Source: Thelocarpon superellum | Lineage: Eukaryota | DNA length: 64,000 nt | Reading direction: 5' to 3' | Assembly: GCA_026025795.1 (NCBI GenBank) | Contig: JAPEUG010000009.1 | Span: 1-64,000, forward strand | Part shown: positions 3,548 to 4,362 of the stretch, one piece after another | Numbering within the stretch: position 1 is the stretch's first letter | Layout of the letters: each line of letters opens with the position of its first letter | Program-made: the position numbers and the translations under genes | Notes under the pieces: generated by a model | Told to the model about the DNA's origin: nothing | Database searches by the model: none | Seen by the model: only the letters and a program-made list of their open reading frames with translations

Positions 3548-3613
3548 TTATCTGGGCTTCGGTGGCGGCGGTGGCTTCGGCACACCCGTGGTGTCATATG
3601 CGCCACGGCCCAT
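3548..3613 (-). CDS. Candidate micropeptide, 21 aa: MGRGAYDTTGVPKPPPPPKPR
   Basis: ATG in strong context (GAACATGG) 39 nt after a canonical intron (3653-3730); mostly G/C third positions; ends TAA. In-frame upstream ATGs at 3628 and 3643 have weaker contexts. Confidence 0.6.
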   Translation of the reverse strand: MGRGAYDTTGVPKPPPPPKPR

Positions 3614-3652
3614 GTTCACCGACGGCATCTCTCGGAGTATCATGAGGAGAAT

Positions 3653-3730
3653 CTATGACGCATGTCAGCGGAATGACTCGGAAGGCGCGGCGTGGGTGCG
3701 CGGCGCGGGATGCGCACATGGCCGACTCAC
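3653..3730 (-). other. Spliceosomal intron upstream of the micropeptide ORF
   Basis: GTGAGT donor at 3730, GCTGAC branch site at 3669-3664, CATAG acceptor ending 3653; 78 nt. Confidence 0.75.
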
Positions 3731-4121
3731 TCCGCGTGGGGTGGGGAACCAGAGGCGATCGTGACTCAGGGGAGTCCAAGGGCGGCAGCTGCCAGCCAAC
3801 ACAGGTGCAGTGCGAGCCTCTTTGGAGGAGGCGGTAGGTGTGAAGGAGCAGGTTAGTGTCGGCTCGGTGTCGAGGGAGACGTGGGTTATTAAGGCGACCG
3901 GCCAGTCCCGCGTTGGTCGAGGTGATGTCTTGCGACAATGTCTGAGACAGTGGAAGCCGACTGATGCTGCGTGGGTCGAGGCAAGGACAGGTGCGCGAGC
4001 GGGAAGCCGGCAAGGTGAGAAAAGCAATAATACAAACAGGAAGAAGAGGAGCTGGAGAGAAGGGAGGGGAGAGGTAATGTGCGTCAGGAAAAAGCCGGGA
4101 CCCGAGCGCACGCTGAGCGAC

Positions 4122-4127
4122 TATATA
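4122..4127 (-). promoter_or_regulatory. Putative TATA box of the micropeptide transcript
   Basis: TATATA followed about 50 nt downstream (minus strand) by a CT-rich tract typical of fungal transcription start regions. Confidence 0.35.
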
Positions 4128-4362
4128 CCTCCACCCATGGATGGACCACGGTTCGGTAGGCTCCGGCGTGGCGTGGTGCGGTTGCGGTTGCGGTAACATG
4201 CCAAGGGTCCCTGTTGCGTCGTAGTCGCCGCGGTGGTGGGCAGGAGCAGGAACGAACAACTCGTAAAGAAAAAAAAAGACGAGAAATGAAATTAACTGCC
4301 CATGCCTTCCCTTGATTTGTGTCGCCCACGCTCCCCACTTTCCCTACGGTCCCCGGCCCCGT

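Follow-up and report, generated by a model that had tools for sequence, protein, structure and literature searches.

A conserved 31-codon small open reading frame behind a predicted leader intron in Thelocarpon superellum, a candidate member of an unnamed micropeptide family of filamentous fungi

The arthropod gene tarsal-less/polished rice/millepattes encodes peptides of 11-32 aa with an LDPTGxY motif, which are translated from several separate small open reading frames (ORFs; smORFs) on one transcript, and these Tal/Pri peptides act in trans on a conserved partner, Ubr3/Shavenbaby (see bioRxiv 10.1101/376111). In this work we analyzed a stretch of 64,000 nt from Thelocarpon superellum (GenBank assembly GCA_026025795.1, contig JAPEUG010000009.1, positions 1 to 64,000; "the window" below), in which the minus strand carries a predicted 31-codon smORF that, judged by comparison with other genomes, is a member of an unnamed family found across leotiomyceta. 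The two systems are alike in outline, with a near-invariant motif of 7-10 residues, an RNA that looks non-coding and repeats in some lineages, but they show no sequence relation: LDPTGxY is absent from the window peptide, while the core pattern of the fungal family matches the window once (3585-3613; zero matches in 100 shuffles). Unlike Tal/Pri, the fungal family has one ORF per gene, with tandem modules in one ORF only in Xylariales, and a Pro/Lys tail.

Other described peptides resemble the smORF product in single respects. The arginine attenuator peptide, encoded by the upstream ORF (uORF) of arg-2/CPA1, is a short first-AUG ORF in a long leader whose peptide is widely conserved; it differs in that a main ORF follows there and not here, and the C-terminus of the smORF product is variable. 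The protein, Pfam and PDB searches revealed no sequence similarity of the smORF peptide to the arginine attenuator peptide or to other uORF peptides. MSDIN and a-factor-type precursors share a size of 30-35 aa, the lack of a signal peptide and a conserved N-terminus of ~10 residues before the core; however, the smORF has no flanking Pro pair, CaaX box, prenylation signal or nearby prolyl oligopeptidase, and MSDIN cores are hypervariable whereas the smORF core is invariant. Fungal ribosomally synthesized and post-translationally modified peptides (RiPPs) are generally recognized by a signal peptide and Kex2-framed repeats (dikaritins) or by a Pro-flanked core (MSDIN), with DUF3328/UstYa or prolyl oligopeptidase genes adjacent. 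Neither the window peptide nor the 16 long frames of 0.7-9.6 kb exhibit these marks of MSDIN or dikaritin/KEP precursors, and the only Peptidase_S9-like hit in the window is weak and 35 kb away. Finally, SH3 ligands and the insect peptides apidaecin and pyrrhocoricin have a comparable Pro/Lys(Arg)-rich tail, predicted to be extended, and the window peptide matches PxxPx[KR]; however, neither SH3 class is kept throughout the family, a signal peptide is lacking, and any likeness to the insect peptides is compositional only.

Members of the family and constraint on the peptide

The predicted product of the smORF comprises 31 aa (MILREMPSVN-MGRGAYDTTG-VPKPPPPPKPR; 93 nt without the stop codon) and agrees with the family in its start, core and tail. 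Its MILRE start corresponds to the consensus N-terminus M1-I2-x-R4-E/D5...N10, its residues N10-M11-G-R-G-A-Y-D-T-T-G20 follow the core pattern [ND]-hydrophobic-GRGxYDTTG, with columns that are invariant in our alignment A1, and its tail VPKPPPPPKPR conforms to the consensus [VT]-P-K-P-x-P-P-P followed by a stop, which in the family lies 9-16 codons past the core.

Metagenome contigs were searched with a degenerate DNA pattern for MGRG[AG]YDTTG (~42 bits), for which at most ~1 chance match was expected, though the size of the collection was unknown to the analysis; at least 110 loci matched. Collapsed on +/-150 nt, 110 loci and the window represent 93 distinct contexts, of which 86 exhibit an in-frame ATG ahead of the core, at a distance of 10 codons in 56, 11 in 15 and 12 in 15, and the ORFs from these 86 contexts comprise 29-36 codons, with one exception cut by the locus end. 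A phmmer search with the 31-mer against 1.84e9 representative proteins reported 110 hits at E<=1e-3 (best 1.8e-11), 109 of which carry the core, and a profile search with A1, the first row of which was a natural 43-aa ORF call, reported 129 proteins at E<=1e-3. The exact window peptide is absent from the protein collection searched. The sequence-only reading of this DNA had tentatively mentioned similar MGRG(A/G)YD starts among unannotated proteins of Pezizomycotina, and the pattern, HMMER and profile hits all bear this out. As a further probe, the 249-aa stop-to-stop frame at 3594-4343 was used in translation; it matched 66 pattern stretches, none of which was confirmed by tblastn.

The genera named for family members include, in four groups, Sordaria, Colletotrichum, Coniochaeta, Thermothielavioides, Thermothelomyces, Trichoderma, Fusarium, Verticillium, Pyricularia, Gaeumannomyces, Cytospora, Xylaria and relatives; Monilinia, Sclerotinia, Pseudogymnoascus and Phlyctema; Alternaria, Venturia, Aureobasidium, Bimuria and Microthyrium; and Trichophyton, Penicillium (two species) and Aspergillus (one species). 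For the classes Sordariomycetes, Leotiomycetes, Dothideomycetes and Eurotiomycetes one species each was checked against the taxonomy, and the remaining genera presumably belong to the classes in which we place them. SMACR_12796 from Sordaria macrospora (33 aa), CTA1_1554 from Colletotrichum tanaceti (32 aa), FVEN_g13095 from Fusarium venenatum (31 aa), Vi05172_g7821 from Venturia inaequalis (31 aa) and OOU_Y34scaffold00641g75 from Pyricularia oryzae (32 aa) are true homologues: the core GRGAYDTTG, the length, an N-terminus of the form M-I/V-x-R-E and the P/K tail are all common to them and the window peptide. All of them are unnamed, and neither a Pfam family nor a function has been described for any. 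Where a source name is attached to a family member, it reads "hypothetical", "predicted" or "uncharacterized" protein or is simply a model identifier, the sole exception being a JGI entry labelled dihydrofolate reductase (a 47-aa ORF call). Database entries of greater length result from ORF calls that reach too far upstream or continue downstream, and the 15 longest of them contain no Pfam domains. For nine family members Pfam reported nothing beyond one meaningless hit (E=4.8), PDB sequences gave zero matches and the ESM Atlas no usable hit. Pyricularia oryzae Y34 has two entries, P0153 and P0188, the second with a degenerate core MRDAYDTTG; some genomes may thus hold a paralogue or a decaying copy.

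No paper on the family was found in the open-access literature and bioRxiv by peptide strings, locus tags or topic, and neither SMACR_12796 nor its peptide occurs in the available text passages and three supplementary files of the S. macrospora proteogenomics paper PMC6794485. A conserved smORF peptide on a non-coding-looking RNA is a known kind of gene; this particular family, its breadth and its leader architecture appear undescribed.

The relatives allowed us to assess the constraint on the peptide. As ten codons are set by the search pattern, the ratio of non-synonymous to synonymous differences (pN/pS; pairwise counts over related sequences, not tree-based) was taken on the unforced parts of 51 distinct class-10 ORFs. 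It is 0.23 in the four codons after the core (pS 0.74, pN 0.17) and 0.60 in the N-terminal codons 2-10 (pS 0.64, pN 0.38), compared to 0.95 and 0.94 in the two shifted frames and 0.97 in an upstream pseudo-frame used as controls. The residues outside the pattern in the same ORFs are M1 (51/51), I2 (45/51), R4 (45/51), E/D5 (47/51) and N10 (50/51), and third positions in the core vary freely (Gly12 is encoded by GGA in 20, GGC in 23, GGT in 6 and GGG in 2). In the three groups with alignable flanks, the variable sites within the smORF are distributed over the codon phases as 3/3/14, 8/9/23 and 6/4/19; all other 90-nt segments from -900 to +900 have a flat codon phase, and the peak of conservation is the smORF. 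At the DNA level, the similarity of the window to the relatives is confined to the smORF, with matches of 64-94 nt. These comparisons indicate that coding selection acts at the amino-acid level, and we consider it very probable that the smORF is a real gene under selection on its peptide sequence.

Judged within the window alone, the features of the smORF are at chance level, and their significance comes from other genomes only. The window contains 662 ATG-initiated ORFs of at least 21 codons (79 of them within 1400-8700), compared to 699 +/- 17 in 30 shuffles, and 41 intron-like motifs, compared to 31 +/- 7. The codon usage of the 21-codon ORF described by the sequence-only reading scores -0.05 bits/codon, i.e. 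below 91% of true coding 21-codon chunks and above 72% of off-frame chunks. The 419-nt run without ATG upstream (4138 to 3719, minus strand) has P ~0.16 given the local composition, and ATG depletion was therefore dropped as evidence from the window alone. That nothing is significant here by itself would suit a chance ORF, or a conserved non-coding DNA or RNA element that happens to be open; this explanation is nevertheless hardly credible in view of the third-position variation with fixed first and second positions, the frame-specific pN/pS, the conserved placement of start and stop, and E-values reaching 1.8e-11 with a query of 31 residues. That these loci are copies of a single recent mobile element is argued against by their 45 DNA clusters and the spread over four classes.

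The 21-codon ORF is present where it had been described, with its start placed at MGRG (ATG 3613). The conserved ORF, however, opens 10-12 codons upstream with M-I-x-R-E/D in 86/93 contexts; in the window the frame is open from 3652, and the in-frame ATGs 3643 and 3628 precede 3613. In the relatives retrieved by HMMER without the pattern, residue 11 is M, F, Q, E, N, W, Y, S, T, L or A (e.g. NFGRGAYDTTG in Sordaria), and because of this variability ATG 3613 cannot be the start codon of the family. Comparison with the relatives indicates that the conserved start is ATG 3643, with a predicted product of 31 aa. The strong start context attributed to ATG 3613 does exist there, but it is explained by the conserved Asn10 (AAY) and Gly12 codons. 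N-myristoylation of a form initiated at Met11 was considered and dropped, since Arg follows the Gly and Met11 is not conserved.

The predicted leader intron and promoter-like elements

The intron motif that had been read at 3653-3730 is present (78 nt, GTGAGT...GCTGAC...CATAG, 3730-3653 on the minus strand) and corresponds to a leader intron that is positionally conserved in the relatives. It ends 9 nt before ATG 3643, with no exonic ATG back to 4138, and the only ATGs from 4138 to the start codon, at 3719 and 3663, both lie inside it. Among the 65 loci with at least 300 nt upstream, 47 exhibit an intron-like motif ending at most 45 nt before the start codon, compared to 2/65 shuffles; the gap between acceptor and ATG is 5-39 nt in the relatives, most often 18-20, and 9 nt in the window.

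Evidence of splicing comes from the loci L056 and L023, which are 99.5% identical save for an exact 282-nt GT..AG deletion in L056 (GTGAGTCA...CTCAG), 39 nt before the start codon. In L056 all 485 nt preceding the start codon are free of ATG, and the sequence that follows the stop, of at least 960 nt, shows no credible ORF. The pair resembles a transcript contig beside a genomic or pre-mRNA contig, which would indicate splicing in one relative. In 44 loci the exonic leader contains 6 ATG in 7,330 nt (0.8/kb, none in 40/44), and the intron 50 ATG in 4,836 nt (10.3/kb), i.e. the exonic leader is depleted in ATG more than 10-fold relative to the intron; the value for the 3' flank is 9.1/kb. Altogether, the conserved intron, the splicing in a relative and the depletion of ATG indicate that the AUG of the smORF is maintained as the first one on a spliced mRNA. 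The proposal of a standalone spliced small-peptide gene is supported by this comparison. The sequence CACTAAC, noticed near 3855 as a second branch-site/acceptor candidate, is present (3858-3852); inspection by eye found no usable GTRNGT donor upstream, and a second intron using it was therefore dropped.

Further upstream, the TATATA element and the CT-rich tract of the sequence-only reading are both found, the former at 4127-4122 and the latter as 41% C and 25% T over 3731-4120 of the minus strand. The TATATA is plausible as a promoter of a long-leader transcript; the relatives mostly carry a TATA-like element inside the intron. There, TATAWA lies inside the predicted intron in 24/44 loci (2.3 expected from shuffles) and in the last 200 nt of exon 1 in 2/44. 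L009, L012, L018 and L054, for instance, carry such an intronic element, with ...CTGACATATAAAGCAG directly before the start codon. Another recurrent element is the heptamer TGA(C/G)TCA, a putative Gcn4/CpcA/AP-1 (bZIP) site. It occurs within 450 nt upstream of the start in 36/61 loci versus 2/60 in a downstream control, and in 34/61 loci it is embedded in the intron donor GTGAGTCAG; elsewhere in the same loci, CA follows GTGAGT in 2/50 cases. The intron of the window has 68% G+C and no TATA, the only TATATA being that at 4122-4127, and its donor GTGAGTCGG (3722-3730) is separate from the heptamer. In the relatives, the heptamer with a TATA tens of nt downstream suggests a putative proximal promoter nested in the intron, or an RNA element; such a nested promoter could yield a short-leader transcript.

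No conserved ORF was found downstream of the smORF: ORFs of at least 70 aa from all loci cluster only within groups alignable at the DNA level (the largest with 8-11 loci), and no ORF within 1 kb is common across lineages in the 93 contexts. The smORF is therefore not a classic uORF, i.e. it does not stand in the leader of an mRNA with a co-conserved main ORF; in the window no coding frame is seen for ~2.1 kb downstream. A uORF could in principle belong to a minus-strand gene further away, e.g. the signal-peptide-like gene near 1390. The first-AUG position, the long leader and the conserved peptide are typical of conserved-peptide uORFs, and the minus strand is free of ATG from 3513 to 3042. 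However, with the nearest minus-strand coding signal ~2.1 kb downstream, the normal ATG density of the 3' flank and the likeness of the window to its relatives ending with the smORF, we regard this possibility as very improbable. The ATG-free run just mentioned (471 nt) is the longest of its kind in the window. In one group of loci (L007, L008, L042, L062 and L073) the region from +100 to +800 after the core is about as conserved as the ORF (0.8-0.9 majority fraction), without codon periodicity, and could represent a functional 3' region of the RNA.

Table 1. Features of the smORF locus in the window
Feature	Position	Strand	Remarks
ORF as first described, 21 codons	ATG 3613 to TAA 3550-3548	minus	encodes MGRGAYDTTGVPKPPPPPKPR
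Conserved smORF, 31 codons + TAA	3548..3643	minus	MILREMPSVNMGRGAYDTTGVPKPPPPPKPR; same build in relatives
Internal-Met11 part of the smORF (the ORF as first described)	3548..3613	minus	Met11 replaced in relatives
Core M-G-R-G-A-Y-D-T-T-G, codons 11-20	3584..3613	minus	G12 R13 G14 Y16 D17 T18 T19 G20 invariant in alignment A1
Exon 2 leader, 9 nt	3644..3652	minus	between 3' splice site and start codon
Intron in the 5' untranslated region, 78 nt	3653..3730	minus	donor GTGAGTCGG at 3730, branch CTGAC 3668-3664, acceptor TAG 3655-3653
Putative exon 1 (5' end not placed)	3731..4120	minus	ATG-free, pyrimidine-rich; predicted to be transcribed
TGAGTCA/TGACTCA heptamer, bZIP-type	3762..3768		32 nt upstream of donor, in exon 1
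CT-rich tract	4010..4100	minus	by composition; putative core-promoter role
TATATA, candidate TATA box of the long-leader transcript	4122..4127	minus	484 nt before start codon

Possible mode of action of the predicted peptide

AlphaFold2 run with 52 sequences predicted no secondary structure (mean predicted local distance difference test score 73, predicted template modelling score 0.19). The tail consists of 54% Pro and 31% Lys+Arg, and the sequence-only reading had suggested that the product may be an SH3-type ligand. Among 66 distinct peptides the PxxP expressions of SH3 ligands match in 32 (class I, [RK]xxPxxP), 44 (class II, PxxPx[RK]) or 61 (either), with the window peptide matching class II only; any Pro/Lys-rich tail would give such counts, and neither class is kept.

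We propose that the transcript starts downstream of ~4120 with an ATG-free, CT-rich first exon, that splicing of the 78-nt leader intron (3730-3653) removes both upstream ATGs, and that the first AUG of the mature mRNA (3643) opens the 31-codon ORF, which ends with TAA at 3550-3548. The product would be a free, unfolded micropeptide acting in trans in a mode like that of the insect Tal/Pri peptides: a cellular partner, itself highly conserved, would be bound through the near-invariant [ND]-hydrophobic-G-R-G-x-Y-D-T-T-G, with a second and looser contact made by the polyproline tail, which is rich in Pro and Lys. Transcription and translation in this organism, the action in trans and the existence of a partner are all inferred. 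A protein-coding micro-gene at 3548-4130 (minus strand) with a trans-acting peptide product is the best explanation we can offer, and we lean towards it with modest confidence; granted that the gene is real, action in trans as such stands at about an even chance. It is favoured because the central part of the peptide is the most constrained and the C-terminus is variable, because modules have been multiplied within one ORF in Xylariales, and because nothing conserved lies downstream to be regulated.

The multiplied modules are found in Xylariales as single ORFs with 2-3 tandem copies, each composed of a spacer, [ND]-aromatic-GRGxYDT[TS]G and a P/K tail, and fit a dosage or avidity effect for a ligand. 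The corresponding entries, from Xylariales and unnamed contigs, are P0002, P0003, P0004, P0006, P0007, P0010, P0018, P0083 and P0126, and the spacers between their modules are acidic or hydrophobic. Multi-core precursors with acidic spacers would also fit a pheromone-like or RiPP-like product, in which case the smORF would encode a precursor that is processed or exported and from which a leader of ~10 residues is cut after Asn10 in the absence of a signal peptide, and the core peptide is then released, modified or exported. The leader-plus-core layout with Asn before the core in 50/51 ORFs agrees with this scheme, as does the length of 29-36 aa without a signal peptide, which recalls a-factor-type precursors and the MSDIN family. 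However, neither a CaaX box, nor Kex2-type dibasic framing of the cores, nor a signal peptide is present; no candidate maturation enzyme adjoins the smORF, the nearest genes recognizable by Pfam encoding a Ras-family GTPase and a FIT protein, and no neighbouring ORF is conserved within 1 kb in the relatives. We therefore regard a processed peptide as improbable.

Several points weigh against the reading of a spliced micro-gene with a free, trans-acting peptide. The invariance of the core in the metagenome set is circular, since the core was fixed by the pattern; free of this bias are only the flanking residues and the set retrieved by HMMER. Seven of the 93 contexts have no upstream ATG. In the window copy itself, ATG 3643 stands in a weak context (C at -3) and is followed by the further in-frame ATG 3628, and the codon usage resembles that of non-coding DNA. 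L056 could be a genomic copy that has lost the intron, although the deleted segment would still mark a true intron. Finally, the PPP found in 59/66 distinct peptides and the seemingly long 3' region after a 31-codon ORF (in L056 at least 960 nt) fit a cis-acting, translation-coupled role equally well. As to the seven deviant contexts, L004, L027, L045, L055, L060, L091 and L107 contain the core while the upstream ATG is missing or the frame runs past the tail; variants with an intron, pseudogenes and chance matches all come into question for them.

A cis-acting stall or sensor ORF is the main rival explanation. Here the nascent peptide would stall the ribosome, with the core in the exit tunnel and the polyproline at the peptidyl-transferase centre, and the stability or activity of the long, otherwise non-coding RNA that carries the smORF would depend on its translation, e.g. 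as a read-out of eIF5A/polyamine or amino-acid status. Translation of polyproline depends on eIF5A, and a comparable degree of conservation is seen in arrest peptides, e.g. the fungal arginine attenuator peptide; the invariant core lies 1-10 residues upstream of the Pro-rich tail with its PPP. The smORF is also the first AUG of a transcript that seemingly runs on well past the stop in L056, and a short ORF with a long 3' region is usually prone to nonsense-mediated decay. Within groups the flanks can be aligned but show no coding periodicity, and the heptamer conserved at the donor is of the Gcn4/CpcA type, which may link it to amino-acid control. On the other hand, known arrest peptides are strict near the stop, whereas here both the C-terminal residues (KPR, KRR, PPK, KPK) and the distance from core to stop vary, with tails of 9-14 residues, and TAA is the stop in 56/84 complete ORFs. 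Tandem modules in one Xylariales ORF are hard to square with a stall at the first module, and there is no conserved downstream ORF to regulate. Thus, we consider the cis-acting role rather unlikely and retain the trans-acting micropeptide as the preferred reading.

Surroundings of the locus and significance

The fungal origin of the window is evident from the Pfam domains of its long frames (Fungal_trans, Stb3, FIT, Ku, L24e, FtsH-type AAA protease, topoisomerase, ferric reductase). The sequence-only reading had noted that 1.4-8.7 kb lacks a long gene, and this is upheld by a codon-usage scan and a Pfam search of the long frames: the scan, trained on nine clear genes of the window, detected no sustained coding frame at ~1.45-8.6 kb (all six frames at background), and only one of the 16 long stop-to-stop frames of 0.7-9.6 kb matched Pfam, namely the Ras-family GTPase frame at 8978-9601, with no matches among the long open frames between the gene near 1390 and ~8.7 kb. 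Rfam reported zero matches on 1-11000, a tRNA and tmRNA search found none, and a repeat search revealed only short chance pairs and a (CGC)10 microsatellite. The microsatellite lies at 4364-4394 (with G+C-rich short repeats at 4374-4434), ~240 nt upstream of the TATATA and inside a block of 64-69% G+C (4250-5250).

The ~7.3 kb between the two divergent genes (1265-8650) have 56-69% G+C, with the 93-nt smORF as the sole coding signal, and are unusually long for an intergenic span of a compact fungal genome. On one side lies a minus-strand gene at 731-1450 (start near 1390) with a signal-peptide-like MQLRQALFFLPLAAAVVSA and an Asn-x-Ser/Thr-rich body, without a Pfam match, which probably encodes a secreted glycoprotein. 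On the other side, 5 kb from the smORF, lies a plus-strand gene for a Ras/Rab-family GTPase (8690-9601) with at least two exons, the second frame of which matches Pfam Ras (1.3e-39).

Genes this small are routinely missed, and most fungal annotations omit or mis-extend the smORF, here a 93-nt ORF inside a seemingly empty 7-kb stretch. The carriers of the near-constant core include model and industrial fungi and many plant and skin pathogens. That the core has stayed so constant in four classes of Pezizomycotina implies an interaction that is both specific and important. No family entry, structure or paper was found in the resources searched, which makes the product a well-defined candidate for a new fungal regulatory peptide. 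The combination of a leader intron, an ATG-free first exon and an smORF at the first AUG can serve as a signature for finding further members and similar genes. Tentatively, and with more doubt than belief, we propose that filamentous fungi could have here their first micropeptide family of signalling type with deep conservation, an unfolded peptide of 31 residues switching a core regulator via GRGxYDTTG and gated at two levels. If so, the family would have been conserved since the radiation of leotiomyceta as a functional analogue of Tal/Pri; the gates would be a bZIP site of the cross-pathway-control or AP-1 type fused to the donor and a TATA nested in the leader intron, and whether the peptide is produced at all, and which AUG is used for it, would be determined by the choice of promoter or the removal of the intron.

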